From: a virus
Taxonomy: Duplodnaviria > Caudoviricetes
Virus record (IMG/VR): IMGVR_UViG_3300006162_000016
Coordinates: 1-55,624 of that record
Length of the DNA stretch: 55,624 bases
Strand: one strand, 5' to 3'
Shown: positions 1-32,403 of the stretch, in pieces
Numbering within the stretch: the stretch's first letter is position 1
Layout of the letters: every line of letters begins with the position of its first letter
Program-made: the position numbers and the translations under genes
The notes under the pieces: generated by a model
What the model saw: the letters and a program-made list of their open reading frames with translations, nothing else
Database searches by the model: none
What the model was told of the DNA's origin: nothing

Positions 1-218
1 AAAATAATAAGCAATCAATACGAATTATCAATACATTCCTCAAATAATACCACTATCGTTAGTGTCTACATACTCGCTACATTCACACCGTAAACTAGAT
101 CAAATAAAAATAGGATGACGAATGACTGTCATAGTCAAGAGTAAGACTCTATTCCTGATGTGCAATCAGCCGCGAAAAGATTTACAACCTTGTGAGTCAT
201 TATGAGTCAATCGGCCCA

Positions 219-246
219 TTGACAAATCAGGGAATCCGGCTATAAT
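219..246 (+). promoter_or_regulatory. sigma70-type early promoter P1
   Basis: TTGACA (219-224), 16 nt, TATAAT (241-246); AAGGAG RBS before ATG at 285. Confidence 0.8.
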
Positions 247-284
247 TGATTGAGGCTTGAGACGGTACGAAAGGAGATAAAAGC

Positions 285-974
285 ATGAGCTATGACCAGC
301 AGATGACGGAATGGGTCAAGATTCTAAACGGCATGGATAGAAAACCTCTGTATGACTTCGGATGGTCTTTAATCCATGTGCCGGAACCAAGAGACGAAAG
401 GAAGGTGAACCAATGACACGACAAAGAGAACGTCAGTTAGTGAAAGGGTTGTATGAATTGCGTGACCGTCTCACGATGGGTCAAGATTCTAGCGGTAACT
501 CAGAAATCAATCAGCCGGAGATTGACTTAATCAACAAACTCTTAGACCTAACGGAGGTTGTCGAATGAACGCTAAAGAAATCAGGCCGGAGATAGAGGCC
601 GGAGAGGATGAGAGATGGTTAGCAGACTTGGAGAGGATAGCAGATAGCATTTATGAGGCCTTGCAATGACTAACCAAGAATTGTGTATTAAGTATTTACG
701 CTTAGACGCTGGAAAGTATGCGGCATTGCTGTTAGAGCAGAGTTACTTAAAAGGTATAGTTACACCTAATGACTTAAAGAGAAAATGGAAAGAAACCGCT
801 AACCGTCTATTACGTAAAGCTATTGTGAAATGAGGTTTACCAATGACTGATAAAGAGTTAGCCGCCTTTACGGATTGCATGGAAGCTAACGCATGGTACA
901 ACTTGCACGGCCTTAGCATCATTGCCGAGGCTTACTTAGCCCGCACGGAAACATTGCTTAACAAGGAAAAATAG
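285..974 (+). CDS. run of five small early ORFs (285-416, 413-568, 565-669, 666-833, 843-974), hypothetical
   Basis: Read by hand; first four coupled by ATGA overlaps; SD-like GGAG/GAGG/AAGG upstream; most are below the ORF-track cutoff. Confidence 0.65.
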
Positions 975-977
975 GCC

Positions 978-1006
978 TTGCACTCTTGGAGTTTTGGGGG
1001 TATACT
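978..1006 (+). promoter_or_regulatory. sigma70-type early promoter P2
   Basis: GGCC-TTGCAC (978-983), 17 nt, TATACT (1001-1006). Confidence 0.65.
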
Positions 1007-1011
1007 GACTC

Positions 1012-1197
1012 ATGGAAAAGAGAGCCGGAGACTATAGCTTGATCCCTTATACCGCCGGAGAAATGGCGGGCATGTCTCACGAAGAGATGAGCTATCACAT
1101 ACTCAATAAGACCATAGACGCATTGGCGGCAATCGGTGACACAATGGTGATACGCTGGAAATGGTACCGCCTTGCGAGAATGGAAGGGGGAAATTAA
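1012..1197 (+). CDS. hypothetical early protein
   Basis: ORF directly after P2. Confidence 0.55.
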   Translation: MEKRAGDYSLIPYTAGEMAGMSHEEMSYHILNKTIDALAAIGDTMVIRWKWYRLARMEGGN

Positions 1198-1200
1198 ACC

Positions 1201-1383
1201 ATGGAGCATGTGAAGCTGGAATATCTGAAAGGCTCTAAAGAAAAAATGGCATGGGCCGCCGAGCACGGCATAGACGGTAGGATGTGGAATGTGTACGCGC
1301 CGGAAGGTCACGCCTTGCGGCCTTTCCATCATAGCACGCGCACGGTAGAAGGATTGAAAGAGTTAGGCGTGATCCGTGCTTAA
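1201..1383 (+). CDS. hypothetical early protein
   Basis: ORF with AGGGGG RBS. Confidence 0.6.
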   Translation: MEHVKLEYLKGSKEKMAWAAEHGIDGRMWNVYAPEGHALRPFHHSTRTVEGLKELGVIRA

Positions 1384-1477
1384 CTTTTGGGGGTTGTTAG
1401 CTATCATTGTGTGCGCCGTTGTCATACGTCACAATACTAAGGGGTGATATTATGGAGCTTGCCGAGACTGTCACAGT

Positions 1478-1861
1478 ATGGACTATGGGCGGAGTAATCG
1501 GAGTAGCGTTACTGCTATTGGCCTTGACGTTCTTAGCAGACTGAAAGGGGGAATCATGGTACACCATTGCGCCTTATGCGGGCGGATAGAGTTTAAGACC
1601 TTCAGAGAATACGAAATACACCGTACAGACTTTCACGGAATCAAGCCGCCGGAAAGACCGTTGAATGTGACGGGCCGGAGCAAAGAGCAGATAGTCAGAG
1701 AGGCCGAGGCCGGATGGTTAAAGCCGTACATTGTGCCGACGGGAAAAGAGCCTATAGCACACTTTGATGATGCGCCACATTTAGAGGCTTGCCGATGTAA
1801 TGCGTGTTTTCAACGTGCTTTAGATAGGCTTGTCGAATCGTCAGAAAAGGCCTTGCAATAA
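1478..1861 (+). CDS. hypothetical protein with C2H2-like zinc finger (start probably 1556)
   Basis: CALC...H...H and CRCNAC; AGGGGG RBS before ATG at 1556. Confidence 0.55.
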   Translation: MDYGRSNRSSVTAIGLDVLSRLKGGIMVHHCALCGRIEFKTFREYEIHRTDFHGIKPPERPLNVTGRSKEQIVREAEAGWLKPYIVPTGKEPIAHFDDAPHLEACRCNACFQRALDRLVESSEKALQ

Positions 1862-1881
1862 TCGGGAATACCTGATATAAA
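1853..1881 (+). promoter_or_regulatory. sigma70-type early promoter P3, extended -10
   Basis: GGCC-TTGCAA (1853-1858), 17 nt, TGa-TATAAA (1876-1881). Confidence 0.65.
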
Positions 1882-1886
1882 ATAGT

Positions 1887-2048
1887 ATGCCTAAAGTGAG
1901 TATCAAAGAGCTTGAGACGATGAGCACGGAAGACCGTCTAAATAGAATCCGTGAGCGCGTCATAGAGATGTACGAGGAAACAGGAGACGTTAAAGACGCG
2001 CTACTATGGATGTGGCGCGATGTGGCGGCAAAACAAAAAGGAGATTAA
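1887..2048 (+). CDS. hypothetical early protein (53 aa)
   Basis: MPKVSIKELETMS...QKGD read by hand; fills gap between P3 and 2052. Confidence 0.55.
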   Translation: MPKVSIKELETMSTEDRLNRIRERVIEMYEETGDVKDALLWMWRDVAAKQKGD

Positions 2049-2051
2049 ACA

Positions 2052-2309
2052 ATGAACCTTAGACCACTAGGCGCGAATCAAACAGAGGTTACAATCAATG
2101 ATGAGCTTGTGATATTGTTTTCATATCGCACGCCTGTAGCGTGTAGCGTAGTCTTAGACGGAAAATGGCAACATTTCAAAACAGAAAAACATTGGAGCGT
2201 TACCACAAGCCGCCATATCAATAAATGGATGCCGACGGAAACAGGTACCAAGGCTCAAGAATGGTTCGATGCCCTAGCCTCTAACCTTCAGATTGTGGGG
2301 GTGAGATAA
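2052..2309 (+). CDS. conserved-type phage hypothetical protein
   Basis: LFSYRTPVA...WSVTTSRHIN motif pattern of a common phage early family; AAGGAG RBS. Confidence 0.7.
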   Translation: MNLRPLGANQTEVTINDELVILFSYRTPVACSVVLDGKWQHFKTEKHWSVTTSRHINKWMPTETGTKAQEWFDALASNLQIVGVR

Positions 2310-2310
2310 C

Positions 2311-3957
2311 ATGCCTATTGATACCGTCATTGTGTTAAGTCCCTACCATCCGGCGAATGAGAATAGCCATAGAAACGGTAGCGGCACATATACCTATAAT
2401 CCGGCAATCCCTACGCCTATCTTTTCTTTGGGCTGGGAGTTAGAGGCTAACCATAGCGCGACAAGAGTACCCGCCGGAGTACAGACAATCAGTGACGGAA
2501 GTGTAAACGGTGACGGTACCGAGTATGTAGTATCGCCCGCCGTCACACGTTCGCCGCGCTTCGTCTTAGGTCTTTTGAAAGACTTGGTACACGCTCCAAA
2601 ATTGAATACTGATAAATCGTGTGGGTTCCATGTGCATATGAGTATTCAAAATGCAAGCCTTCCGCGCTTGCGTAACTGGGCTATTGCAACGGAAGCACTA
2701 GCCAAGGACATAGAAGACATAGCCTTTAAAGCCGTGCCGGATGCGCGGCAATCAAATAGTTATTGTAGACGGATACAAGAGATAACGGCGGGCACACGTT
2801 TTGAGGCCACAAAGTACAATAACTCAAGGCGGTATCATTGGCTAAACACCGTTGAAATCTTCCGGCCTAGTGGTATCCGCACGTTAGAGGTACGCTTGCT
2901 AGGAAATACCCATAGATGGAAGTATCTTTTATCATGGGTTACATTCTCGCTACTGTTAGGCCGTGAGGGTTGGAAGGTAGCACATAGACCCTTTGAAAGC
3001 CGCCGAGCTTCCGTTAAGATGTTGACGGAAGTATTAGAGGCCATAATTGCCGACGTAAAGCCGCTAGATAAAAGGTCTGAGCCTATACCAGCATGGGTCT
3101 ATAGTCAATTGAAAAGTTTAGGTATTGAATTCAGCGCGTTTGAAAGGCCGTTGATTGCTCTAGCCAATACAGAGGCCGAGCTTGCCGGACGGTTAAAGAA
3201 ATTCTATTCAGACAATCAAGCTACCGAGGAAAATAATAGTAGTGATGACGATGACTCTTGTCCTTGTGGATGCGGTGAGGATGGTAGGTGTCAATCACAA
3301 TGCCATGATGACGGAGACTGCGATAGTAACGATTGTACCTACTGTCATTCTGACGGTAACTGCGGGGGTTCGCCTGACTGTTACGAGTGTGTGCGAAGTA
3401 GACATGAGGATGACGAATACTGCGGGGGTGATCGTTGCCGAGTCTGTGAAAGAAGTCAGCGCGGGCCATGGGCTGTCAGTGAGGACGAAGACGAAGAGAC
3501 TACAGAGGCCGCGCCGTCCGTTGCTACCTCGTCAAACGTGACGATACACACTAGCAATGTGTTACCGTCAGACCGTGCCGGAGTTAGCGGAGTGCTTACC
3601 GCCGAGTCAATGCGGGCCGCCGTCGAGACGTTGCGGGCTCAAAGTGTAGCAGGGCCGGAAGTACAAGAGGCCATGACTACAATGATAAGGGATAGCGTGC
3701 TCTATGGTACTCACAATCCGGCTAGAGTGTGTATTGACGAAGCTAGTACCGTGCGCGTCAATGTTGAACCATTGAACATTGAAGGCCGGACATGGATAGT
3801 AGGAGAGACTAGGACGGGCCGCATAGTGACAAGCGGAATAGATGATCCGGCGAACTATGCGCCGGACATGGAGCAGTTAGCTAACGGCATGATGACGCAA
3901 GACGAGCAGATACAAAGTATGGATAGGTCAACATTCTATAATGGGGGTGATCGTTAA
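2311..3957 (+). CDS. amidoligase (COOH-NH2 ligase, Amidoligase_2-like) with Cys/His/Asp-rich C-terminal extension
   Basis: GWELE, DGSV, EYVVSP, SCGFHVHMS, RYHWLN, TLEVR motifs. Confidence 0.8.
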   Translation: MPIDTVIVLSPYHPANENSHRNGSGTYTYNPAIPTPIFSLGWELEANHSATRVPAGVQTISDGSVNGDGTEYVVSPAVTRSPRFVLGLLKDLVHAPKLNTDKSCGFHVHMSIQNASLPRLRNWAIATEALAKDIEDIAFKAVPDARQSNSYCRRIQEITAGTRFEATKYNNSRRYHWLNTVEIFRPSGIRTLEVRLLGNTHRWKYLLSWVTFSLLLGREGWKVAHRPFESRRASVKMLTEVLEAIIADVKPLDKRSEPIPAWVYSQLKSLGIEFSAFERPLIALANTEAELAGRLKKFYSDNQATEENNSSDDDDSCPCGCGEDGRCQSQCHDDGDCDSNDCTYCHSDGNCGGSPDCYECVRSRHEDDEYCGGDRCRVCERSQRGPWAVSEDEDEETTEAAPSVATSSNVTIHTSNVLPSDRAGVSGVLTAESMRAAVETLRAQSVAGPEVQEAMTTMIRDSVLYGTHNPARVCIDEASTVRVNVEPLNIEGRTWIVGETRTGRIVTSGIDDPANYAPDMEQLANGMMTQDEQIQSMDRSTFYNGGDR

Positions 3958-3958
3958 C

Positions 3959-4882
3959 ATGTGCGGATTATTCGCCGGAGTAGGTAAGCTGTCAAGTAAC
4001 AGGATGATTGCTCTAGGGTCTATGAATGAGGATAGAGGTACCGATAGCGTAGGTATTGCCTACGTCTCTAATAATGAGGTACGCATTGCCAAGGTAGCGG
4101 ATAGGCCATGTGTGGCATTGAATACCACACTACGCAAGGAAGTAACCGAGGCCGCCGTATCTGGTATGTTTATCGGTCACACGCGACAAGCTACACAAGG
4201 TGAGGTGACAAGTGCTAACGCTCATCCGTTTTTAGATGACGGTATAGCGTTCGCGCACAATGGGATAATTATAAATGATGAGGATTTCGGCAAGTATGCC
4301 GTTGACTCTCAGAGCCTTATACATGGAATCAAGGCTAAAGACTTTAGCAAGTATGAGGGATGTATTGCTCTTGTGTGGATTGAAGGCGGCAAGCTGAAGG
4401 CGTACCGTTGCGGCAATCCTCTATACAGAGGCCGTCATAACGGCGGCACATACTTAGCGAGTGAGGCCGAGCAGTTAAAAGCAATCGGCTGTACTCATGT
4501 CCGGCAATTGGCGGAAGGTATGATCTATACTTTCCATGATGCCACACGCTTAACGAATGAGCGCGTACCTAAGAATAAATCATACTCCTATACGGCGGGC
4601 TATGCGTCAACGGGTCTAGGGTCTTCCCTTGCGGATTATGATTACGGATACAAAAGGCCGGAGTATAAGCTAGACGCGCCGAGACTTACAGGCCGCACAC
4701 TGTTAGACAAGGAAGACTTTAGCACATGGAAGGATGAGCGCGACAAGGCGCACGCGACTACAGACTATTGCGACATGTGCGGGGGGAAGAGTGAGCTATC
4801 AGAGGGTTACTGCTTAGACTGTATCATGTGGATGAAAGACATGGAGACGAAAGACGTACCGCCCGCGCTTGAGGTTAGATAA
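3959..4882 (+). CDS. class II (Ntn) glutamine amidotransferase with C-terminal CxxC...CxxC
   Basis: MCGLF start at 3959 giving catalytic Cys1; RGTDSVG, GHTRQAT, NAHPF, AHNGII, DS. Confidence 0.9.
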   Translation: MCGLFAGVGKLSSNRMIALGSMNEDRGTDSVGIAYVSNNEVRIAKVADRPCVALNTTLRKEVTEAAVSGMFIGHTRQATQGEVTSANAHPFLDDGIAFAHNGIIINDEDFGKYAVDSQSLIHGIKAKDFSKYEGCIALVWIEGGKLKAYRCGNPLYRGRHNGGTYLASEAEQLKAIGCTHVRQLAEGMIYTFHDATRLTNERVPKNKSYSYTAGYASTGLGSSLADYDYGYKRPEYKLDAPRLTGRTLLDKEDFSTWKDERDKAHATTDYCDMCGGKSELSEGYCLDCIMWMKDMETKDVPPALEVR

Positions 4883-5220
4883 TGGATGAGTGTATCCGGC
4901 TGCTACACTCTATAGAATTCGTAACCGAGAAATGCGGAGAGATAACCTATAGATGCGTGTCATGTGATAAGACGTACATACAATACAATGATGCCACATG
5001 CGGGCGGTAGGGGTATCAGAGTATCAAAAATAAAAAAGACGGGCCTAGAATCGAAAGCCTCAAGGGGGAATTATGGATGATACCAAAGAAAAGCTAACAG
5101 ATAGAGAATGGCGCGAACGTCTCCGGCTTGCTACAGAATTATTTGAAGACCTGAAGCACCAAGCGTATTTGAATAAAGAAATCTAAAGCCGTCTCATAAT
5201 CTCATAGCCGTATGTGGCTT

Positions 5221-5260
5221 AGAGGCTCTAGGGTTATTCATCCTAGGGCCTTTTAGCTTT
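5221..5260 (+). terminator. intrinsic terminator
   Basis: AGAGGCTCTAGGG-TTATTCA-TCCTAGGGCCTTT stem, then TAGCTTT. Confidence 0.7.
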
Positions 5261-5283
5261 GTACGGATTGACTAGGGGGAAGT

Positions 5284-5682
5284 ATGACACAAGCCGAGAA
5301 AGAATATCAACGGGAATACATGAGACGGTACCGAGCCGACAACCGCAAGAGTATCAATGAGAGAGGACGAGAGTATAGCAAGCGTTACTATGAGGCACAT
5401 AAGAGCGCGTGCAATCGCGCAAGCCTTGACGCTAGATTTAGGCGGAAGTTTGGGCTAACGATTGCCGAGCGTGACGCATTGATACAGGCGCAAGATGGCA
5501 CATGTCCATTGTGCGGGCGGGTCTTCACTAGGTTTGATCGTGCGTGCGTAGACCATGACCATGCAACGGGCCGGATGCGGGGGATTATCTGTAGCTCATG
5601 CAACAAGGCTCTAGGACTATTCAAGGATAGTATTCCGGCCTTGACTCGTGCCATTGCCTACTTGCAAGAGGTGAGGCCGTAA
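5284..5682 (+). CDS. endonuclease VII-family HNH (homing-type)
   Basis: CPLC...CVDHDHATGRMRGIICSSCN..LG. Confidence 0.85.
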   Translation: MTQAEKEYQREYMRRYRADNRKSINERGREYSKRYYEAHKSACNRASLDARFRRKFGLTIAERDALIQAQDGTCPLCGRVFTRFDRACVDHDHATGRMRGIICSSCNKALGLFKDSIPALTRAIAYLQEVRP

Positions 5683-5944
5683 CGTCTCTTTACTTAGACG
5701 TTAAGCCGCCTAACGTCAAGCGGCCTAGACATAAGAAGAGCTTACACTACTGTTAACGTAAATTGAGGACTTGTAATGTAGACGAAAAGTCGGAGGGTAG
5801 CATTTCGCTACCCCGTCAGAACTTTACACAGAAATCGTCAGAAAGACTTCAATTCGGAATTTGAGAGCCAAATACTTTCGGGTCAAAATGGTTCCTGAAA
5901 TAGGAAATCTCGTGGGTGTCACCGTCGAGAAATGAAATTAGGCC

Positions 5945-5973
5945 TTGACAAATCAGGACTTGTCTGATATACT
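5945..5973 (+). promoter_or_regulatory. strong sigma70 promoter P4, extended -10
   Basis: GGCC-TTGACA, 17 nt, TGa-TATACT; GGAGG RBS follows; shares TTGACAAATCAGG with P1. Confidence 0.85.
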
Positions 5974-5990
5974 TAGTGGGAGGAAAAACA

Positions 5991-6170
5991 ATGATGACAA
6001 CGAATGAAGGTGTTCCGGCAGAAGTTTTGAAGGAAAGTAAACGGATGGTCAATCCCGGCTTGCCTGTTTCACGAAAGATGTGGAAGATTGCTTATGACAT
6101 TGTGAGAGATCGAGCCATTGATGAGACACGGTTGTGGAAGCGGAACAACATTACGATAGAGAGGGTATAA
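5991..6170 (+). CDS. hypothetical protein
   Basis: ATG at 5991 after GGAGG. Confidence 0.6.
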   Translation: MMTTNEGVPAEVLKESKRMVNPGLPVSRKMWKIAYDIVRDRAIDETRLWKRNNITIERV

Positions 6171-6475
6171 TGGATATCAATGCTCTGAAGTATTCGCCAG
6201 TGAATCGTACTCACGCAATCGAGATGATGCACACACTTCGGGATAGGATTCTATTGCCGGACGATACGTTGAAAGGTTCACGCTTCAATGACGATAACCA
6301 TACGATGTGGGTATTGGAAAGTCAGACGAAGGAAGAGGAGTTTATCCAAGACCCAGTATATTATGTGTGTCAAGCATTGATTGAATCAGCCAAGTCAGAT
6401 CATTGGTATGCACATGATAAGAGATGGGATGACGATGACTATGGATACGAGGAAGATATGGAGGTTGAGGAATAA
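6170..6475 (+). CDS. hypothetical acidic protein
   Basis: TAATG coupling on both sides. Confidence 0.6.
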   Translation: MDINALKYSPVNRTHAIEMMHTLRDRILLPDDTLKGSRFNDDNHTMWVLESQTKEEEFIQDPVYYVCQALIESAKSDHWYAHDKRWDDDDYGYEEDMEVEE

Positions 6476-6831
6476 TGGAACCGAATCTCTTAATAGTCCT
6501 GCTTGGTACTTGTACAATTACAAGCTACCAGCCTGTGCCCGCCCAGACAAAGCCGGAATGTCGAGATCGGTATCACTGCACGACTTCTATTGACGATGGC
6601 ATTACACAGTATGGAGCTGCAGTCAGTCAAGACTTTCTAAAGAGTGGGACTGTTCACTACGGTGATGTCCTTCAGATTGAAGGTTTGGGTATGCGAGTGG
6701 TAAATGACACGATGAACAAACGGCATAAGAAGCACGTAGACTTGATGGTGTTCAGTTACGCAGAAGAACATAAGATTGGAATTCAACATCGAAAAGTTTG
6801 GGTGATTCGCCCAGAAGGAGCACACAAATGA
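6475..6831 (+). CDS. 3D-domain / double-psi barrel cell-wall protein (putative lytic transglycosylase)
   Basis: TITSY...AAVSQD...YGDVLQIEGLG...VNDT...HVDL; hydrophobic N-terminus. Confidence 0.7.
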   Translation: MEPNLLIVLLGTCTITSYQPVPAQTKPECRDRYHCTTSIDDGITQYGAAVSQDFLKSGTVHYGDVLQIEGLGMRVVNDTMNKRHKKHVDLMVFSYAEEHKIGIQHRKVWVIRPEGAHK

Positions 6832-6969
6832 ATTATAAGCCGCAGCCAACGAAGAAGACAACTCCGAATCGTAGAGCCCGCAAAGGTGAACGCAACACAG
6901 TTTTTCAATACAACCGTTCACTCCGGGGTCGTTTGAATCGTGAACGTCGAGCAGCTAAGGAGCAAACCA

Positions 6970-7332
6970 ATGGCTAAGCGAAAAGATAAACTCGTGCTCT
7001 GGCAGAATGTCAAAGAAGTCCGGGCTAAACCCTGTGGAGAGAAGAGTCCATATTGGTCATGGATGGAGATGACGGCAGCCAAAGAGATTGATGATATTCC
7101 AGCACCGTCAGAACCAGTGTACGATGCACAACTGGATTCAGTTCTTGAAGCTTTGAATGACGGAGCAGAGGATGTGATGACGGCGAAAGAACGAAAGGCT
7201 TTTCAATTGATCGTCAGAGAAGGCAAGACGTATACGGTTGTGGCAAAGTTAATGCACTTGCCTCGTGGTGCCGTCCAGCAGTTAGTGACAAGAGCCGCAA
7301 AGAAATTGCGTATTCTAGCGTCGATTCATTAA
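6970..7332 (+). CDS. sigma70 region-4-like HTH protein
   Basis: [21 protein letters not shown]....[15 protein letters not shown]; AAGGAG RBS before ATG 6970. Confidence 0.7.
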
Positions 7333-7333
7333 G

Positions 7334-7681
7334 ATGAATGGATTTAGAAAACGACTTGCTATTCTCTTAGCGAAGCCAATTAAAGAACCACTAAGAGCAC
7401 GTAGTTCGTGGTACCAAATGATTCAGCGTTGTTACAATCCGAGAAATCAAGGTTTTAAAAATTATGGTGGACGTGGGATAAAAGTGTGTGACCAATGGCG
7501 GAATTCATTTCAAAACTTTCTCAATGACTTAGGAGAAAGGCCACAAGGTCTTACCATCGAAAGAATAAATAACGATGGAGATTATGAACCGGGAAACTGT
7601 AAATGGGCAACGTACACAGAACAGAATAATAACAGAAGACCAGTCTCTAATTTGTGGAGATTACGCATCAAAAAGAGTTAA
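7334..7681 (+). CDS. HNH homing endonuclease
   Basis: MIQRCYNP...[10 protein letters not shown]...[20 protein letters not shown]; AT-rich. Confidence 0.85.
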
Positions 7682-7728
7682 TCTGTAGACAGCAGTTTAG
7701 ACTCAAATAGGACAAGAACGATGCGAGT

Positions 7729-7747
7729 TATCCGGAAATTCCGGATA
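7729..7747. repeat. perfect 9-bp inverted repeat, operator-like
   Basis: TATCCGGAA-A-TTCCGGATA in intergenic space. Confidence 0.7.
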
Positions 7748-7786
7748 GTTCAAGGCTGATGACTGCGCGTATATATGGGGGTATCT

Positions 7787-7999
7787 ATGGACAAACTTTT
7801 AGCGATCTGGAAGAAAGCTCAAGAATTTCTCACAGTCGATGGCGGCTTATACGTTGATGCAATGTGTATCGTCATCATTGTGCGATTGGTTGCGGTATTG
7901 TTTAAAGCTCCCCCGTTAACCGCTTCAGAAGCGGGACTGTGGAGTGTCACGGTTGGTGCGTTTTCAGCGAGTAAATTTGGAGGGCCAAAACAGTCATGA
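7787..7999 (+). CDS. small two-TM membrane protein (holin-like)
   Basis: two hydrophobic segments, basic C-terminus. Confidence 0.5.
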   Translation: MDKLLAIWKKAQEFLTVDGGLYVDAMCIVIIVRLVAVLFKAPPLTASEAGLWSVTVGAFSASKFGGPKQS

Positions 8000-8514
8000 A
8001 ACTTCGATATCAGTTAGGACTACTCATCGTCGGGATACTGGGATGCACGCTGATACTTCAGCGCTGTAACAAACCTTTACCTATCCCGAAAGGACCAGCA
8101 CAAATCTCGTATCAAAATGATACGATTGTGATCAAGCAGAAAGGTAAGCCGGATATCAAAGAGTTTCAACCTGATCCTAAGAGCACAGTCATCACGACTG
8201 ATGATAAAGGGCAAGTAACTGTCAAAGTTCGACAGTTTGGTGTTGGGACTGACTTAGGAGTGGGTATCGGGCTCTCAGACCGCGCTAGAGTGGCGCTGGA
8301 TGACCGCTTTGCCTACTTTAAGCGCTTCGGCGCCAATGCCGGCCTTGGGTTCAGTCTGGATAAGAATGACTACAAGAAGGGCCATTTGCTTGACATTGTG
8401 GACCCTTACGTGGGTGCCAGCGTCGTCCCGTTCGTTGGGATGCCAAATACGTCAATAGTTACAGCGTACACTGTAAGTAAACATGCGTTCATCTTTGTGA
8501 GGGTTCGATTCTAA
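7996..8514 (+). CDS. envelope protein, N-terminal TM/signal plus beta-rich C-terminus ending in Phe
   Basis: MKLRYQLGLLIVGILGCTLIL...; amphipathic strands; FIFVRVRF end. Confidence 0.5.
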   Translation: MKLRYQLGLLIVGILGCTLILQRCNKPLPIPKGPAQISYQNDTIVIKQKGKPDIKEFQPDPKSTVITTDDKGQVTVKVRQFGVGTDLGVGIGLSDRARVALDDRFAYFKRFGANAGLGFSLDKNDYKKGHLLDIVDPYVGASVVPFVGMPNTSIVTAYTVSKHAFIFVRVRF

Positions 8515-9692
8515 TGCCTATTCAAACCGTTGTCGAAACGCCACACGTCCCAGTGAAGGTCTGGTCACAGGATGTGGAAGCTGAGGCTTTAAAACAGCTT
8601 GAGAACACCGCCCGTTTACCGTTCGTCTTTAAACATGTAGCGGCAATGCCGGATGTTCATGTAGGACGAGGCGCGACAATTGGCTCAGTCATTGCTACCA
8701 AAGGTGCAGTGATTCCAGCGGCAGTGGGTGTTGATATCGGATGTGGTATGATGGCTGTGAAGACAAACTTAATCGCCGCACAAGTTGCGGAGAAGATTGC
8801 GGAGATTAGGCATAGCATCGAGAGGTCTATCCCAGTAGGCTTCAATGCCAATAAATCACTCAGTCAAGAAGTCCAGAATTGGACTGGATGGGTTGATGGA
8901 TGGATTGTTGAAGCTCATCCGGTGGCTGTCATTCAAAAGAGTGCAGCTCAGCTCGGTTCACTTGGTGGCGGGAATCATTTCATTGAAATCTGTTTGGACA
9001 AAGAAAATAATGTGTGGATCATGTTGCACTCAGGCTCACGCAACATTGGTAAGGTGTTGGCGGAGAAACACATTGATAAAGCCAAAGGTCTGATGAAGCA
9101 GATGTTTATCGGCTTGCCTGATCGCGACTTGGCGTACTTTGCACAAGGAACGCCTGAATTCAACGCATATACGTCCGATGTGCGTTGGGCTCAGTCGTAT
9201 GCCATGTTCAACCGTCAAGAGATGATGAGACGGATTCTTAAAGACCTTGGCTTCATGTTCAATGGCGGGATGCCAATAGAACCAGTATTCTCAGTAAACT
9301 GTCATCACAATTACTTGGAGTGGGAGCATCATTATGGAGAGAACGTTATTGTCACGCGCAAAGGAGCAGTACGCGCTAGAGAAGGAGACATGGGAATTAT
9401 TCCGGGCTCTATGGGCACACGGTCCTACATCGTGCGAGGCCGAGGTAATCCTGAGTCATTCAATTCCTGTTCACATGGGGCAGGTCGTCGTATGTCGAGG
9501 ACGAAGGCAAGGGCTACATTCACTGTGGAGGATTTGGCAAAACAAACAGAAGGGGTCGAATGTCGCAAAGATATTGGGATTGTGGATGAGATTCCGGGCG
9601 CGTATAAAGACATTGATGTGGTGATGGCAAATCAAACAGACTTGGTTGAAATCGTAGCTGAGCTCAAGCAAATTTGTTGCATCAAAGGATAG
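8514..9692 (+). CDS. rtcB: RtcB RNA 2',3'-cyclic phosphate/3'-phosphate ligase
   Basis: MPDVH.G.G, VGVDIGCGM, GGGNHF, HSGSR, HHNY, PGSMG, SHGAGR. Confidence 0.97.
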   Translation: MPIQTVVETPHVPVKVWSQDVEAEALKQLENTARLPFVFKHVAAMPDVHVGRGATIGSVIATKGAVIPAAVGVDIGCGMMAVKTNLIAAQVAEKIAEIRHSIERSIPVGFNANKSLSQEVQNWTGWVDGWIVEAHPVAVIQKSAAQLGSLGGGNHFIEICLDKENNVWIMLHSGSRNIGKVLAEKHIDKAKGLMKQMFIGLPDRDLAYFAQGTPEFNAYTSDVRWAQSYAMFNRQEMMRRILKDLGFMFNGGMPIEPVFSVNCHHNYLEWEHHYGENVIVTRKGAVRAREGDMGIIPGSMGTRSYIVRGRGNPESFNSCSHGAGRRMSRTKARATFTVEDLAKQTEGVECRKDIGIVDEIPGAYKDIDVVMANQTDLVEIVAELKQICCIKG

Positions 9693-9693
9693 A

Positions 9694-9783
9694 TGATGAA
9701 CTATGAGGCAGTAGTTCGTGTAGCCGTTGAGTGTGCAGGGATCACCGTCGTGGTTGTGATGTTGCTCGTTTCATTATTGTAGA
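9694..9783 (+). CDS. 29-aa hydrophobic peptide
   Basis: MMNYEAVVRVAVECAGITVVVVMLLVSLL, immediately after rtcB stop. Confidence 0.4.
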
Positions 9784-9785
9784 AT

Positions 9786-9887
9786 TTGTCGTAACTCAAA
9801 GAATCGAGAGCCGAAGACAATAAGGGCCGCGAACACGAGGTATTGCCTCAGTAGCGGAAAGCTGGTGTAAGTCCAGCACGACAGTCA
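9786..9887 (+). ncRNA. aberrant tRNA-like RNA
   Basis: TGTCGT/ACGACA closing stem, D-like arm, T-like arm GCTGG-TGTAAGT-CCAGC, oversized middle arms. Confidence 0.55.
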
Positions 9888-9893
9888 ATTAAG

Positions 9894-10003
9894 GCTCACA
9901 CCTAGCAAATCACATAAGAGCTAGGGAGTGTATGGGCAGGCTACCTCAGTTGAGCTTCGTAGCCACACCGGGCTTTGGAGTGGGGATTCCCGCTCGGCCC
10001 GGT
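9894..10003 (+). ncRNA. three consecutive hairpins, candidate structured RNA or leader
   Basis: CTAGC/GCTAG, GGCTAC/GTAGCC, ACCGGGC..GAGTGGG/CCCGCTC..GCCCGGT. Confidence 0.45.
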
Positions 10004-10037
10004 CTATTTGAAGGACTATTAAACTAGGAGGACGTAA

Positions 10038-10517
10038 ATGGCTAATAAGCCCACAGTCGTAGAAAACATTCAGGTGCTTCAAGTTGGTAAGTATGGTGTT
10101 CGCGTCGATGAAAAAACTTGGTTCGGAGTCAATGAGCCACTTACGCCCTCTCACTTTGTGCCGAATGAAGGTTACAAAGTTTCTGTGGTCGTGAGCAAGA
10201 CAGGTAAGAAGTATATCAATGAAATCCTTGGTACCGAAGTTGCACAGGAAGCCGCGCCTGCCAAAGCAGCAACGCCAGCTCCTGCCCCGACTCCGGCACC
10301 TGCCCCTAAAGCTGCAGCGCCAGCCGCTGATGCTACGCGTGCTGAGCACTACACTCCGAAGCTCGATGAGAAGAGCATTCAGATTCAGCGACAGGGATTG
10401 TATCAAGCCGCGCTTCAAAGTCCGGCCATTGCTCAATGGGCTGTGAACATTGACGAATATCTGGCTTTGGTTCGTAAAGTGGCTGATGCGGGTATCAAAT
10501 ATGTCGCAGAGCGCTAA
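10038..10517 (+). CDS. putative ssDNA-binding/recombination accessory protein
   Basis: beta-rich N-domain, Ala/Pro linker, helical C-domain; AGGAGG RBS; precedes exonuclease. Confidence 0.4.
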   Translation: MANKPTVVENIQVLQVGKYGVRVDEKTWFGVNEPLTPSHFVPNEGYKVSVVVSKTGKKYINEILGTEVAQEAAPAKAATPAPAPTPAPAPKAAAPAADATRAEHYTPKLDEKSIQIQRQGLYQAALQSPAIAQWAVNIDEYLALVRKVADAGIKYVAER

Positions 10518-10722
10518 TCCAGTCGAGCAGCAATGCAACGCTGTGTTGGCGCAGCCCTGCCCATACAAGGCTCCCCCGCTCATGTTTATGGGCGGTCATA
10601 GTTTCTGTCCTTGTGTGTGCAGGGCCATTCGGACGGCCTACATTGGTGGGTATCGAGATGGGAAAGCCGGTACCCCGCCGGAAGTTGGCATTGAATACAT
10701 TGATGGGAAGGAGCAAGACTAA
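10501..10722 (+). CDS. small Cys-rich hypothetical protein
   Basis: ORF track, internal Met (MSQSANP); coupled to next gene. Confidence 0.5.
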   Translation: MSQSANPVEQQCNAVLAQPCPYKAPPLMFMGGHSFCPCVCRAIRTAYIGGYRDGKAGTPPEVGIEYIDGKEQD

Positions 10723-11381
10723 TGCCCCATAAGACAGTCGTTAAAGGTGGAGTTAACATACCGTCAGTCACACAGATCATCGGTTGTCTTGACAAACCGG
10801 GACTGTATAACTGGTATGGAAAATATGGAACCGAGGAGTGCAATCGGATCAAAACCGAGAGTGCTTTATTCGGGACGGCTGTCCATGATATGATCGAGCA
10901 GTATATCACAAAGATTCAGAAGCCTATTGAATTTCCTGAATCTGTGGATCAAGAAAAAGCTAGAGAGTGTGCAAAGAACTTCGCTGAATGGTATGACAAA
11001 TCTGGATTGGAGGTTATCAATGCTGAACCAGAAGATGCAGTGTATAGCAAACGATATAATTTCCAAGGCACTTGGGACTTCATCGGGCGCAAAAACGGAA
11101 TCATGCTTGCCGCAGACTGGAAAACGTCGAACCAGCTCTATGAGACGGTTGGTTTACAGCTCTCGGCTTACGCACACTTATTTGGAGAATCACAAGGGTG
11201 GGATGATGAAGAAATCTTTAAGAAAATACCTAACGGACTTGCCGTAAGAATTGATAAAAAGTCTGCCAAGGTCTACACGAAAGAGTACACAGGACTGAAG
11301 CATTACTTCGATGTCTTCAAGCACTTGATTCACGCGTATGAATTCCATACGCAGACAGGAGCATGGGACCATCGTGAATAA
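10722..11381 (+). CDS. PD-(D/E)xK exonuclease (RecB/Cas4-like)
   Basis: PSVTQII, GTAVHDMIE, GTWD, ADWKTS, LQLSAYA. Confidence 0.85.
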   Translation: MPHKTVVKGGVNIPSVTQIIGCLDKPGLYNWYGKYGTEECNRIKTESALFGTAVHDMIEQYITKIQKPIEFPESVDQEKARECAKNFAEWYDKSGLEVINAEPEDAVYSKRYNFQGTWDFIGRKNGIMLAADWKTSNQLYETVGLQLSAYAHLFGESQGWDDEEIFKKIPNGLAVRIDKKSAKVYTKEYTGLKHYFDVFKHLIHAYEFHTQTGAWDHRE

Positions 11382-11925
11382 TATTCCGTACAACGCTGTA
11401 ATGGTGGACTTGGAAACAATGAGCACGGATAGCAATGCGTCTATCATCTCGATAGGTGCAGTGAAATTCTGGCTCAATGTGAAACAGACGGAGTTCACAC
11501 AGGACCAATTGTTCTACACAGCAGTGAGTCTTGATAGCAGTCAACAAGCCGGACTTCATATCAAAGCGGATACAGTCATGTGGTGGCTCTCGCAAGAGCC
11601 GGAAGCCCGGAATGCTTTTAAGAATCCTGTTTCATTGGCAAGTGCACTCGGAGCTTTCAGCCGATTCATTCCAAACAAAGAGACATACATCTTTGGGAAC
11701 GGTGCGGCTTATGATAACGTGGTGCTTCACAATGCGTACAAAGCTATCAATCAGAAATATCCAGTCAGCTACAAATATGATGTTTGCTATCGGACCATGT
11801 GCAAGTTGTCCAATACACCTGTGCCGGCCTTTGAAGGAACGAAGCATAATGCCTTGGATGACGCGAAAGCACAGACACGTCATTTGATGCAGATTCTAGA
11901 AACGATTCCGTGGGTGAAATTTTAG
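11374..11925 (+). CDS. DEDDh 3'-5' exo(ribo)nuclease, Rv2179c/exoVIII N-domain-like
   Basis: MVDLET, IISIGAV, TVMWW, GNGAAYD, HNALDDA; start uncertain (11374 or 11401). Confidence 0.85.
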   Translation: MNNIPYNAVMVDLETMSTDSNASIISIGAVKFWLNVKQTEFTQDQLFYTAVSLDSSQQAGLHIKADTVMWWLSQEPEARNAFKNPVSLASALGAFSRFIPNKETYIFGNGAAYDNVVLHNAYKAINQKYPVSYKYDVCYRTMCKLSNTPVPAFEGTKHNALDDAKAQTRHLMQILETIPWVKF

Positions 11926-11928
11926 ACC

Positions 11929-11957
11929 TTGACAAAGTAGTATTATTCTGTTATACT
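11929..11957 (+). promoter_or_regulatory. strong sigma70 promoter P5, extended -10
   Basis: TTGACA, 17 nt, TGt-TATACT, before primase-helicase. Confidence 0.85.
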
Positions 11958-11972
11958 TAAAAGGAACAATAA

Positions 11973-13790
11973 ATGGAGTCAATTTTGGAACCACAAATTC
12001 GTAACTTATATCGTATCCTCGGACATGCCGAAGGAGACGGTTTCAGTGACGTGCGTTGTATATTAGCAGATGGGCCGCTTCTGGAAGAGGCTATTGAGAA
12101 ATTCAAGACTTCTCACGGTGGGCGTGCCCCAGACGATGAAGAAACGAAGCGGATCAAAGTTGTAAACCGCTCGATCATCAAAGGAGAGCAAAATGTCGTC
12201 GAATGGGCCAAAAAATATAATGGGCGTGGAAATTGTTATATTGGACGGTCGGCCCGGAAGTCCGATGGTACCTTGCTCGAATTTAGAACGATCACTGCAG
12301 ATATTGACCCTAATCGAGAAAGAGGTACGGCGGCCACAGCCGAATTGTCTGCCAGAGCTATACAAGCGGCTAGGAGAGTACTGCAGCATTATCCGGGGGG
12401 CTACCTTGCCGCCAGTGGCAACGGTGCCCTTATTGTATACCGATTGCCGAGTCCTATTACGACAGATTTTAAAGCCTTTGAACAACGCTTTCGCGCTTTT
12501 GAAGAAGAAATGCGTAAAGTTCATGGGGAAGGAGTAACCCTTGACGCTACGTTTGACACTGCACGAATGGTTAAGCTTTTGGGCACAATTTCAACCAAAG
12601 GTGATAGAGCTCAATGGCGTCACGCCAGATTCCTTGACTTTCCTGTTGTGCCCTACGCTAAGAATGACATTTTGGAGCGAATTAATTCTTGTGGGCCAGT
12701 GGCTAAGGCAGGAGAATCCAAATCCTTTAAAAATACAGTCTACGCGTCTCGGTCTGAATCAGATTTCGCGCTGGCAGTTCACTATAAGAAAGCGGGACTT
12801 AGCAAAGAAGATGCCCTTGCCGCTCTTAAGACACATGCGCTCGGCAGAAATGACAGAGTGGACGACCACATCAGGATCGTTGAAAAAGTCTTTGACCAAG
12901 GCCAAGAAACTCTTAGCCCTACAAATCAAACAGAGCTCGAATATTCCGTACCGGGAGATAAACTCGATGAACATAAAAAACGATTGCTTGAAAGGAAAAA
13001 CTTCACCAAACCAGAAATGTCCATCGGCTTGTCCGTCATTGATAGGCACACATGGGGTTTGCGCCGGGGAGAAATCTTCACAGTTGCCGCTCGACCGGGA
13101 ATTGGAAAAACTTCGATTGCTGTCTCAATCGCTGCAAGAATGGCAAGAGAAGGCAAGAGAGTATTATTCTTCACTTCCGAAATGTCTGTTGACTCAACCT
13201 ACGATAGACTCTTACAAGTTCTATCAGGGATATCAGGTGATAAGTTCACAACTGGCCATTTTACGGATGAGGACCGAATCCGACTTGACGACGCTTACCG
13301 GGAACTTAAGGGATTTGGAGAACGACTTGCTCTCTGTGATGCGTGCAGTCCCGACATCGTACAAGTCAAACGTGTTGCCACAAAAGTAGCACCGGACTTA
13401 TTGATCTATGACCACATCCAGCACATTGGAGGAGAATCAGATGGAGCCAAAGCGAATGTTTCTAAATTCGTCAGAGGACTTAAGGACATTGCAAGAGAGC
13501 TCAATTGTGCTATTCTTGCGCTTAGTCAGATTAGGCGCCTTTTTAAAGACACAAAGACTGGGAAAGAAATCCGCCCAACGCTCAGCGATCTTAAAGAGAG
13601 TGGAACGATTGAAGAAGAGAGTGGAGCAGTGCTTCTCCTCAGCATATTGTCAGAGGAACCCGACAGTCCTATTAGATGTCTTTATTCTGAGCTTGCCAAA
13701 AACAGGTACGGCCCTATTACAGTCGTAGGCGTGGAATTCGATAAGTTCACTGCACACTTCAAGGATTTGGAGGCAGCAGACCTTGTATGA
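11973..13790 (+). CDS. primase-helicase (AEP-like N-domain plus DnaB/SF4 helicase)
   Basis: DID and SGNG primase-like motifs; AARPGIGKT, TSEM, IYDHIQ, LSQ, DLKESG, AKNRYG. Confidence 0.9.
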   Translation: MESILEPQIRNLYRILGHAEGDGFSDVRCILADGPLLEEAIEKFKTSHGGRAPDDEETKRIKVVNRSIIKGEQNVVEWAKKYNGRGNCYIGRSARKSDGTLLEFRTITADIDPNRERGTAATAELSARAIQAARRVLQHYPGGYLAASGNGALIVYRLPSPITTDFKAFEQRFRAFEEEMRKVHGEGVTLDATFDTARMVKLLGTISTKGDRAQWRHARFLDFPVVPYAKNDILERINSCGPVAKAGESKSFKNTVYASRSESDFALAVHYKKAGLSKEDALAALKTHALGRNDRVDDHIRIVEKVFDQGQETLSPTNQTELEYSVPGDKLDEHKKRLLERKNFTKPEMSIGLSVIDRHTWGLRRGEIFTVAARPGIGKTSIAVSIAARMAREGKRVLFFTSEMSVDSTYDRLLQVLSGISGDKFTTGHFTDEDRIRLDDAYRELKGFGERLALCDACSPDIVQVKRVATKVAPDLLIYDHIQHIGGESDGAKANVSKFVRGLKDIARELNCAILALSQIRRLFKDTKTGKEIRPTLSDLKESGTIEEESGAVLLLSILSEEPDSPIRCLYSELAKNRYGPITVVGVEFDKFTAHFKDLEAADLV

Positions 13791-14056
13791 TAAAATATAT
13801 TCACATTGACTATCGGAAGCCTCGGACAAAAGAAGAAAAGAGTGTGTATGCGATTTCTCATGTGGAAACGAATACAGCTAATATGTTCATCAATGTGGAT
13901 ATGCACAGAAAGAGTAAAAACTTGTCAGACACCTTCTTTCACGAAATGGCTCATGTGTTCTTAGCCTTTCATGGCAAAGATGGACAAATGACAGACGCCA
14001 AAGAGGAGAAATTGGCGAAAGAAGTAGAGCGCATCTGCGCGGAGGCTTTAAAATGA
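13787..14056 (+). CDS. small HExxH zinc metallopeptidase-like protein
   Basis: DTFFHEMAHVF...EE. Confidence 0.65.
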   Translation: MIKYIHIDYRKPRTKEEKSVYAISHVETNTANMFINVDMHRKSKNLSDTFFHEMAHVFLAFHGKDGQMTDAKEEKLAKEVERICAEALK

Positions 14057-14583
14057 TTTCAATTTATACGTGTCAACGGATGACAGGCCGCTTCATGGAT
14101 GAAATGGTCAATGAAGCCAAAGTGCTTGTGAGAATGGGGGAATTACGAGGATTTAAGATTCTAAATCCCGTCTTGGAAGAAAAGGTGCCGTCCATCCATG
14201 AAATTCTTCCCCTCACCATTCAGCACACTTTAGAAGAGTATTGGCGCCGGGATAAGGAGATGATTCGAGAGGATGACGTGACTCTCGACTATCACACTCA
14301 GAATATGTCTGACGGCTCTGTAAATGAGGTCGGATACTCTCGATGGTGCCTGTGGAAGCCTACCGTTCGTGTATGGTCTGGTAAAGGTGGACTGATTAGC
14401 CGAGTTGAGGACGATCTAGTGGTGGGCTCTCTTGAGATGGCCTTTGACATCATTCAAGAGCGCTGGGGCACTTATGAGAAGCTGGCCAAGTGGCGCACAG
14501 AGATGCTTGAGAAGAGTTATCCCAAATGGTTGGAATATCAGCGCAGTCTGCAGAAGCGTTATGGGATGAAGGAGATCATCTAA
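14053..14583 (+). CDS. nucleoside 2-deoxyribosyltransferase-like / nucleotide N-glycosidase
   Basis: IY...MTG, ILNP, RDKEMI..D, S.GS..EVGY, KP. Confidence 0.65.
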   Translation: MISIYTCQRMTGRFMDEMVNEAKVLVRMGELRGFKILNPVLEEKVPSIHEILPLTIQHTLEEYWRRDKEMIREDDVTLDYHTQNMSDGSVNEVGYSRWCLWKPTVRVWSGKGGLISRVEDDLVVGSLEMAFDIIQERWGTYEKLAKWRTEMLEKSYPKWLEYQRSLQKRYGMKEII

Positions 14584-14858
14584 TGCCATTCGTGACGCAA
14601 GACCATCGTGCAGCACCGGATGAGTCAATTCCGGGTGATCTCTGCTACATCTACTATAAATATCTCACAGACGAATGGAAGAAAGAGCCTCGCTGGACGA
14701 CGGCTCATAATCTGTTCAAGAAAATGGTGTTTGAGGACTTCTCAAAGCCATTAAGTCAGGATCATATTTGTGCGATGCAGTTGGCATGGCAAGTTTTCAT
14801 GGCCAAATATGTCATGAAATATGAAGATATCAAGGAGGCTGAAAATGGCACTATATGA
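14583..14858 (+). CDS. conserved phage hypothetical protein
   Basis: PGDLCY...YEDIKEAENG pattern; TAATG coupling at 14583. Confidence 0.6.
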   Translation: MPFVTQDHRAAPDESIPGDLCYIYYKYLTDEWKKEPRWTTAHNLFKKMVFEDFSKPLSQDHICAMQLAWQVFMAKYVMKYEDIKEAENGTI

Positions 14859-18839: not shown

Positions 18840-19637
18840 ATGGATAATAACGAGCAACTGAAAATACTTACGCTCGACATTGAGAACTTCCCTTGCGAGG
18901 TTTACTCATGGACACTTGGTGAAGTGCACATTCCGTTAGAGTTTTTGAAGAGAGATTGGTCAGTATGCGCTTGGGCCGCACATTGGTATGGAAAGCCGGC
19001 CAATGAAATCATTTATAAAGACAATCGTGGCAAAAGAGATGTGTATGATGACAAGGAGCTCATCAAAGGGCTGGCTGATTTGATGAATCAAGCCGATGTC
19101 ATTGTGGGACAGAATGTAAAAGCTTTTGATATCAAGAAATTAGCTGCCAGAGCAGTCATTCATGGGTTGCCACCGTTCAAACCTGTGAAGGTGACTGATA
19201 TTTTGACTGAAGAACGCCGAGTCTTTGCGTTCACATCGCACAAGTTGGCCTATAAGACAGAAATTGTCGAGGGCAAGTACAAGAAGCTCAAGCATGAGAA
19301 GTATCCGGGCTTTGACTTGTGGAAAGCGTGCATGGCTAACAAGTTGGATGCGTGGAAAGAGATGGAAACGTATTGCAAGCATGACGTTTTATCGACGGAA
19401 GAGCATTATCATCAAGTCCGGGGCTGGATCAGGACCCAGAATATCTCACCGATTGGTAATAGTGGGAAGATGCAATGCCGCTGCGGTAGTAGCCGCCTCA
19501 TTAAGAAGGGGTATGCTCACACAGAGGTGGGCAAGTATCAAGTCTATCGGTGTCTGGACTGTGGCAAGTGGCCACGGAGTCCAATTAATCTACTCACGAA
19601 AGACCTTCGTGTGAATCGTCTTAGGGAGGCTCAATAA
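18840..19637 (+). CDS. RNase H-fold 3'-5' exonuclease (RNase_H_2/YprB-like) with C-terminal zinc ribbon
   Basis: LDIE, GQN..FD, YCKHDV, CRCGS...CLDCG. Confidence 0.8.
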   Translation: MDNNEQLKILTLDIENFPCEVYSWTLGEVHIPLEFLKRDWSVCAWAAHWYGKPANEIIYKDNRGKRDVYDDKELIKGLADLMNQADVIVGQNVKAFDIKKLAARAVIHGLPPFKPVKVTDILTEERRVFAFTSHKLAYKTEIVEGKYKKLKHEKYPGFDLWKACMANKLDAWKEMETYCKHDVLSTEEHYHQVRGWIRTQNISPIGNSGKMQCRCGSSRLIKKGYAHTEVGKYQVYRCLDCGKWPRSPINLLTKDLRVNRLREAQ

Positions 19638-21038: not shown

Positions 21039-21277
21039 TGGAACTTAACTTCGTCGAAATGGTGAAATTATCCCTTGACAAAGACCTATGTGATCTGTTA
21101 GACTCTAAGAGAGTGCATGTCTCTGAAGTCATGGCCTTGCAGATGCTTCGATTGCAGCGGGGTAAGGCTTTCGTTATAACGAGCGCTGGAACGAGTGTGG
21201 AAGGCTGGACGCCGGACGGGGTGAAATGGTATCCCAGTGAACCGGGAACCTTTACGACAGGTGGAGAAACCAAATGA
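21038..21277 (+). CDS. hypothetical protein
   Basis: AGGAG RBS and TAATG coupling at 21038. Confidence 0.55.
   Translation: MELNFVEMVKLSLDKDLCDLLDSKRVHVSEVMALQMLRLQRGKAFVITSAGTSVEGWTPDGVKWYPSEPGTFTTGGETK
21075..21104 (+). promoter_or_regulatory. possible intragenic sigma70 promoter P6
   Basis: CC-TTGACA, 18 nt, TGt-TAGACT, resembling P5. Confidence 0.45.
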
Positions 21278-31113: not shown

Positions 31114-31114
31114 G

Positions 31115-32392: not shown

Positions 32393-32403
32393 ATTATCCT
32401 CTC

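Follow-up and report, generated by a model that had tools for sequence, protein, structure and literature searches.

Type I and type II restriction systems act on T5-like phages only if their sites fall in the first-step-transfer region, a segment followed by a repeat-rich non-coding border (PMC10644984), and in Murciavirus a type I motif has an effect only when it lies in the region injected early, the authors of that study arguing that selection focuses on the leading DNA (PMC12455610). The present analysis concerns the early region of a freshwater phage genome, IMG/VR record IMGVR_UViG_3300006162_000016, of which the whole 55,624 bases (hereafter the window; classed as linear and 96% complete) were examined. 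A tract at its left, positions 1..5818, is purged of short symmetric words of the type II kind and is compositionally distinct from the rest, as judged from word counts, change points, shuffles and a composition model. Freshwater metagenomes from four studies contain DNA of the window, in four runs, and two of these may be its source.

The tract resembles the first segment of T5, BF23 and other Tequintavirus phages (PMC10644984) in being made of small open reading frames (ORFs; those of T5 serve host takeover) under host-type promoters and in being followed by a non-coding border. Unlike the window, however, T5 is a long-tailed phage whose segment lies inside a terminal repeat of ~10 kb and whose two-step entry has been demonstrated experimentally; no long direct repeat was found in the window, and contig depths in one of the four runs (X2) are equal on the late and early sides of the junction between record end and record start (144.6 and 144.6), which is weak evidence against a collapsed repeat. 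With T7-type phages and Murciavirus (for the latter, PMC12455610) the window shares the short-tailed phage type and a left-end early operon under host-type promoters. It differs from T7 in having neither a gene of the size of a phage RNA polymerase nor a match to the Ocr family, and from Murciavirus in that many type II-like words are involved here and not one type I motif. The leading regions of conjugative plasmids are a further parallel as proposed first-entering DNA, and those of plasmids are enriched in anti-defence genes; plasmid leading DNA, unlike that considered here, enters in single-stranded form.

A reading of the window made earlier from its sequence alone (the sequence-only reading) had reported that positions 1-5760 contain no GGWCC, no CCSGG and a single GCWGC (at 4899). 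These counts are exact, as are the first later sites it gave (CCSGG at 6054, GCWGC at 6616, GGWCC at 8092), and the words do become common later, with 58 GGWCC, 92 CCSGG and 137 GCWGC in the window as a whole. Its expectation of roughly ten copies of each in this span overshoots a little for two of the words; the depletion itself is nonetheless real. For GGWCC, CCSGG and GCWGC, respectively, the rate in the rest of the window predicts 6.7, 10.6 and 15.7 copies in 1-5760, a first-order Markov model predicts 7.0, 7.1 and 12.9, and a maximal-order Markov model predicts 2.1, 6.8 and 2.8, the last over-correcting because it is estimated from sub-words that are themselves depleted. The fairest null is a synonymous-codon shuffle, in which the proteins and the region's own codon usage are kept and only synonymous codons are permuted (2000 shuffles); the corresponding expectations are 5.3, 6.2 and 7.4. 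When the three words are pooled, one copy is observed versus 18.9 in the shuffles (standard deviation 3.9, minimum 6), and none of the 2000 shuffles contains one or fewer, so that the depletion is significant after correction for both composition and codon usage. The avoidance is also visible at alanine pairs, where the sequence-only reading had noticed it: all eight Ala-Ala pairs of the early genes start with GCC or GCG, as compared with 17 of 28 in 20 middle genes, where the other 11 open with GCA or GCT. In an unbiased screen of all 512 strand-symmetric 5-mers with Bonferroni correction, GCAGC/GCTGC ranks third and CCCGG/CCGGG ninth, both passing the threshold, whereas GGWCC taken alone (p ~0.001) fails it.

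The depletion extends to other symmetric words. As a class, 6-bp palindromes are more depleted than non-palindromes relative to shuffles (p 0.0003), with a ratio of observed to shuffled counts of 0.49 in the tract; this ratio is 0.59 over the 5.8 kb that follow and 0.77-0.87 in the remaining six segments of the window, the opposite end included. YGGCCR and RGCGCY are absent from the tract and occur 72 and 59 times, respectively, in the rest. An internal control is provided by hexamers with a GC-only 4-bp palindromic core, of which those with M..K or K..M flanks lie outside any symmetric recognition: these flank classes make up 61.5% of such hexamers in the tract vs 28.3% elsewhere, and exact palindromes make up 3.3% vs 19.4%. 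In a scan of 320 symmetric patterns, of which 207 were eligible (shuffled mean of at least 4), 15 of the 207 have no copy in the tract, as compared with 1-6 in eight late segments, and 18 are at or below one fifth of expectation (1-16 in the late segments). A word and its reverse complement behave alike on the coding strand (CAG and CTG, for example, stand at 0.64 and 0.66 of expectation), and the purging force therefore acts on double-stranded DNA.

A genome-wide layer of avoidance lies beneath this early-only layer. CCWGG is absent from the entire 55.6 kb, where ~80 copies are expected, and at least twelve 6-bp palindromes have no copy anywhere in the window, among them AGATCT, TTCGAA, GCATGC, ATCGAT, TGCGCA, GGATCC, CTCGAG, CACGTG, GACGTC, GTCGAC and ACTAGT.

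The sequence-only reading, which spoke of restriction-type sites, proved too narrow in one respect, namely that the whole oligonucleotide usage of the tract differs from that of the rest, with depletion of non-palindromic words and enrichment of the hexamer GCCGGA. Relative abundances in tract and rest are 1.07 vs 0.67 for TA, 1.09 vs 0.86 for CG and 0.98 vs 1.18 for CA/TG. CTAG, which is strongly avoided elsewhere (52 copies vs 130 expected), occurs in the tract at its expected frequency (24 vs 22.8), and the non-palindromic CAGC/GCTG is reduced there (16 vs 53). The codons ATA, CTA, TTA and AGC are frequent, ATA accounting for 37% of isoleucine codons (9% in the rest) and CTA for 19% of leucine codons (6% in the rest). 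The dinucleotide signature distance of the tract from the rest is 111, as compared with 24-81 for 16 other segments.

The left edge of the tract could be located with the aid of a contig, L003, that is 100% identical to the window across 4571 + 3710 bases and carries between these two blocks 991 extra bases (L003 4572-5562) joining window base 55624 to window base 1; contigs from three more runs span one or both joints of this stretch, and a 56,756-base contig encodes a protein identical to one of the window. When the window is circularised, the longest site-free gap of each of the three words crosses the record start, running from 55235 to 8092 for GGWCC, from 55199 to 6054 for CCSGG and from 54684 to 4899 for GCWGC. 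Leftward of the tract, the nearest copy of any of the three words in L003 is a GCWGC at L003 4647, which gives a single-site zone of ~6.97 kb. When a third-order composition model was trained on DNA outside the zone under test, its switch points fell at approximately L003 4803-5000 on the left, inside the stretch absent from the window, and at window position 5818 on the right; the pooled change point of the three words is 6053. The right boundary, which the sequence-only reading had placed near 5.8 kb, is thus sharp and lies at 5.8-6.0 kb, at the end of the first operon.

That operon is delimited by two predicted promoters of the sigma-70 type. The first, P1 (219..246, plus strand), is a perfect match (TTGACA, 16 nucleotides, TATAAT; 12 of 12 positions), and the second, P2 (5945..5973, plus strand), consists of TTGACA, 17 nucleotides and TATACT with a TG element; the 13-mer TTGACAAATCAGG is common to both, and these are its only two exact copies in the window. 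Of the three promoters that the sequence-only reading had placed in the segment, one, P1, is perfect, and the remaining promoter-like sites are weak. The restriction-type words return just past P2 (6054, 6616), and the purged tract would correspond to one transcription unit, predicted to run from P1 through the gap before P2.

Ten IMG/VR loci related to the window (L001-L010) were available for comparison, with the early region in hand for seven of them (L004-L010). The nearest other genome is represented by L001 and L004, which belong to a single 58.8-kb contig and whose DNA polymerase and amidoligase are 82% and 64% identical to those of the window. L004 has none of the three words across 7280-14189, a purged zone that is bracketed by the same P1 (7458) and P2 (14210) pair, and no CCWGG in 5620-14741, with 21 copies elsewhere in L004 and L001. 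Compared with shuffles, the three words number 0 vs 15.8 in L004, 1 vs 23.1 in L007 and 18 vs 30.0 in L006 (where CCSGG alone is 0 vs 8.0), and 15 vs 11.6 in L005, which shows no purge. A relative abundance of TA near 1 and raised CTAG are found in the early region of all seven relatives. Early/late log ratios of 3- and 4-mers are correlated across six genomes, two of them without the three-word purge (r 0.44-0.92), GATC and TCGA being the most depleted words and CTAG and other words containing TAG or CTA the most enriched.

Within the tract the window and L004 are ~75% identical, and this degree of divergence bears on how the purge has persisted. In a simulation of random substitution (500 runs), 10% change refilled the tract to 10.7 sites and 26% change to 20.5, and none of the 500 runs stayed at one site or fewer. 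Because random divergence would refill the tract, selection is still acting to keep the purge in three or more diverged lineages, which makes a recent foreign origin unlikely. Aligned amidoligases offer an illustration, at seven columns and therefore anecdotal, in which an identical peptide is coded without a site in purged lineages and with a site in others; one CCTGG has CCTAG as its counterpart in the window, a hint that destroyed sites may have left behind some of the enriched TAG words.

The enriched words deserve equal attention. GCCGGA (with its complement TCCGGC) is the most over-represented hexamer of the tract relative to shuffles (30 copies vs 8.8, z 11.5), followed by AGGCCG/CGGCCT (20 vs 6.7) and GCCCGC/GCGGGC (12 vs 2.4). 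It is also the top hexamer in L004 (16 vs 4.2, z 7.2) and L007 (14 vs 3.3, z 6.4), and not in L005 or L006; hexamer z maxima in late segments are 4.2-5.6. All 30 CCGG of the tract lie within GCCGGA/TCCGGC, as do 15 of 16 in L004, nine of nine in both L009 and L010, 14 of 16 in L007, eight of 14 in L006, seven of 11 in L008 and none of nine in L005, which has no copy of GCCGGA at all. The copies lean to the plus strand (20:10, 13:2 and 11:3), and no longer repeat unit was found around them. Copies of L004 (7 of 12) and L007 (4 of 6) stand in the same alignment column as in the window, so that the pattern is inherited in part. These observations raise the possibility that the early operon of the clade carries a constrained double-strand vocabulary, with GCCGGA, AGGCCG and GCCCGC positively selected and read by some phage or host factor, or that a physical property needed for ejection or translocation is under selection; palindrome loss would then be one facet of a restricted vocabulary. 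With such a factor, GCCGGA might serve as a protective or 'self' mark, attenuate end-dependent nucleases in the manner of Chi, or pace the entry of the DNA. In addition to the standing of GCCGGA in three lineages and the confinement or near-confinement of CCGG to it, this explanation would accommodate the k-mer shift common to genomes with and without the three-word purge, the rise in TA and the depletion of many non-palindromic words. However, no reader of such words is known, one lineage, L005, lacks the hexamer, and the hexamers that are enriched coincide with precisely those flank classes that symmetric recognition would leave alone; moreover, CTAG, CCTA/TAGG and GCTA/TAGC are each one transition away from purged sites and could be by-products of the purge. 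We therefore regard this explanation as rather unlikely.

Two other accounts were weighed against the same data. According to one, which the sequence-only reading had named as its alternative, a phage of another host supplied the tract as a mosaic module of separate origin, and the missing sites and the composition of the tract are relics of that history. The atypical signature distance, the divergent usage of ATA and CTA, the fact that CTAG goes unavoided in the tract only, and the lower identity of the amidoligase than of the DNA polymerase to those of the nearest relative are all compatible with such an acquisition. It is nevertheless disfavoured, and quite improbable in our judgment, since the same tract with the same TA and CTAG shift occurs in all seven relatives and the purge is kept in lineages that are 58-75% identical, although 10% random change is enough to refill it; in addition, sites are abundant elsewhere in the genome, which would make a relic purge useless, and it would not be maintained. 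The other account places the selection at the level of RNA or translation in the early genes, through codon choice for prompt expression, the stability of the mRNA or a need to do without those tRNAs that host anticodon nucleases attack until the RNA-repair genes of the phage come into play. The unusual codon usage of the tract agrees with it, as does the middle region with its genes for RtcB, an RNA ligase and an HAD phosphatase of the repair type. Yet on the coding strand a word fares no differently from its reverse complement, the 20 plus-strand copies of GCCGGA are spread over all three reading frames (8, 3 and 9), and the depletion concerns symmetric words, all of which makes this the least probable of the accounts, with very little chance of being correct.

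The reading that best fits these results is staged exposure of first-used DNA, to which we assign a probability of about 55%. Under staged exposure, the tract would be the first operon of a short-tailed freshwater phage of the tf/LUZ24 type, driven by a host-type promoter and adjoining the place where the genome end is expected. Selection against short symmetric type II-like words is much stronger in the tract than in the rest of the genome and is continuing; the words concerned are GGWCC, CCSGG/CCNGG, GCWGC, CCWGG, RCCGGY, WCCGGW, YGGCCR, RGCGCY, GATC, TCGA and approximately half of the 6-bp palindromes. DNA of the tract would have to work in the cell while unprotected, through entering first or through being used at a time when no protective function has yet been made; the remaining genome, where these sites still number in the hundreds, would be exposed only afterwards. 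We infer this order from the consideration that selection on a single operon only makes sense if copies of the sites elsewhere are harmless, which implies exposure of the tract at a time when the rest is not exposed. Depletion, boundary, conservation and the action on double-stranded DNA are established by the data; entry order, a genome end close by and a protective function are proposed, and this last, an anti-restriction function, would have to belong to an unknown family. No C5, N4/N6 or Dam-type DNA methyltransferase match was found, and the absence of these three families was counted in favor of staged exposure. The interpretation offered by the sequence-only reading, that this end is exposed before a protective function acts, is partly supported, in the significance of the depletion, its boundary and its maintenance by selection, and the wider shift in vocabulary is a part that it did not cover.

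Several observations weigh against staged exposure. To our knowledge, no phage of tf/LUZ24 architecture has been shown to have staged entry, and T7 and tf, the nearest cultured models, exhibit no early/late contrast (in T7, the early region up to terminator TE and the rest both contain 6.6 six-bp palindromes per kb, and TA stands at 0.88 vs 0.89). Non-palindromic words are depleted equally or more than symmetric ones: the most depleted 5-mer is the non-palindromic CTGCA/TGCAG (0 vs 16.5), and CCAC/GTGG (19 vs 42.4) and GAAC/GTTC (15 vs 33.7) also fall far below shuffled counts, while 4-mer and 5-mer palindromes as a class are not more depleted than non-palindromes relative to shuffles (p 0.5 and 0.41). 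One late segment, 31108-36925, has 16 low-count patterns, six of them at zero, which is near the 18 of the tract. L005 and L006, which lack the three-word purge, also have the general early signature of raised TA and CTAG and lowered GATC. No match to the known anti-restriction families Ocr, ArdA or ArdB/Antirestrict was found. P1 and P2 are promoters of one type, and the operon after P2 is therefore not necessarily later in time. Since the otherwise identical contig L003 holds 991 further bases, window position 1 is an assembly break, and the physical end is not fixed there. Finally, among 1751 plasmids, leading regions show no consistent depletion of 4-8 bp palindromes (PMC13478746).

Synteny with Pseudomonas phage tf, in whose record 186-bp terminal repeats are annotated where terminase arm and early arm meet, would predict a genome end just left of P1. 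Like tf and the LUZ24/PaP3-like phages, the window has two convergent arms, one with portal and terminase at its far end and the other with small early ORFs, an amidoligase and a glutamine amidotransferase followed by primase-helicase and DNA polymerase, and has host-type promoters facing outwards from the ends. Unlike the window, tf shows at the left end neither a break in composition nor any clear additional purge. The two are only distantly related at the portal (22.7% identity over 40% of the query), and all portal matches are distant, to cyanophages, tf and others at 19.5-27.9% identity. A phage collection searched at near identity, by DNA and by protein, with the tract and the amidoligase gave no match, and a scan of genome contigs with the large terminase found no relative. 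A cyanobacterial host is an idea drawn from the distant portal matches and from enzyme names.

The left arm of the window, on the plus strand, carries in order the small ORFs, the amidoligase, the glutamine amidotransferase, an endonuclease VII-type gene, a sigma-70 region 4 protein, an HNH nuclease, RtcB, the primase-helicase, the DNA polymerase and further RNA-repair genes; the right arm, on the minus strand, holds the tail and head genes, those for the portal (50815-52893) and the large terminase (53238-54596) being located at its far end. The 991-base stretch beyond contains one minus-strand ORF of 128 residues and ~570 non-coding bases. The 128-residue ORF was considered as a small terminase and set aside, as it has no family match in PHROGs or Pfam. 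In run X2 the main population departs from L003 at roughly 4650-5400, where only a minor-variant contig fits; the spot appears hypervariable and is the probable cause of the break in the assembly.

Within the tract itself, a non-coding leader (1..218), which extends left into the ~570 non-coding bases (L003 4991-5562), precedes P1, and 15 ORFs, all on the plus strand, lie between this leader and the gap at 5683-5944. Ten small early ORFs of 34-127 residues (285..2309) come first; nine of the ten gave no PHROG match and are without family, and the one at 2052-2309 matches phrog_5643, which has no assigned function. The amidoligase (Amidoligase_2; 2311..3957; PF12224, E-value 3e-7, above the cut-off; phrog_2443), with a Cys/Asp-rich middle part, and the class-II glutamine amidotransferase (3941..4882; PF13230, E-value 2.9e-8; phrog_4736, E-value 8.8e-23) are both confirmed by Pfam, as the sequence-only reading had it. 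Two or three tiny ORFs without family follow (4882..5186) and hold the sole GCWGC of the tract; two of them, scanned against PHROG, gave no match. The last gene of the purged operon encodes an endonuclease VII-type nuclease (5284..5682; PF02945, E-value 6.2e-24), beyond which a non-coding border with hairpins (5683..5944, plus strand) contains the composition change point at ~5818. No canonical intrinsic terminator was detected at this border (fold z-score -1.39 vs shuffles, not significant), and one weak terminator-like site is present at 5673-5688.

Other genes of the window are of related interest. A second endonuclease VII-type gene (54586-54933, minus strand) lies beside the large terminase, so that the genome has two, the other being the one that closes the early operon. 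In the operon after P2, a 130-residue protein (6940-7332), whose match is limited to sigma-70 region 4, is a possible candidate, by its sequence, for a regulator of host RNA polymerase, and the HNH nuclease gene lies at 7334-7681 (plus strand). The second gene after P2 (6170-6475) encodes an acidic protein of 101 residues (a longer reading of 113 residues has a net charge of -18) with a conserved acidic C-terminal tail ending in EVEE or MVEE; it was considered as an Ocr-like mimic and rejected, as only nine relatives were found, none of them named, and the AlphaFold model (mean pLDDT 58.7) is too poor to support a comparison of folds. The RNA-repair set comprises the RtcB ligase (8514-9692), an RNA ligase (19637-20551), an HAD phosphatase of 'Swiss Army Knife' repair proteins (20553-21038) and an Rv2179c-like 3'-5' exoribonuclease (11338-11925), which suggests a defence against host tRNA or RNA nucleases. 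A trypsin-like peptidase gene (21274-22026) is present in the middle region and a single tRNA-Met gene (48865-48939, minus strand) among the structural genes.

That restriction acts selectively on first-exposed phage DNA is a principle already in print; what is added here is a clade-conserved, operon-bounded example in a phage type where it had not previously been noted, although no literature search was aimed at this clade or at GCCGGA. The exclusive GCCGGA context of CCGG serves as an internal control, comparing symmetric with non-symmetric flanks, that could help to screen further genomes. In uncultured phages, a sharp and conserved purge of this kind would mark, from sequence alone, the first-acting genes and the probable genome end; the 13 ORFs of the tract that are without family would be candidates for new anti-restriction proteins, and the lineage-specific list of purged words would be an indirect read-out of the restriction enzymes present in the hosts. 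Restriction enzymes would then leave their imprint on phage DNA with the resolution of one operon, and in phages other than the models T5 and T7 as well.

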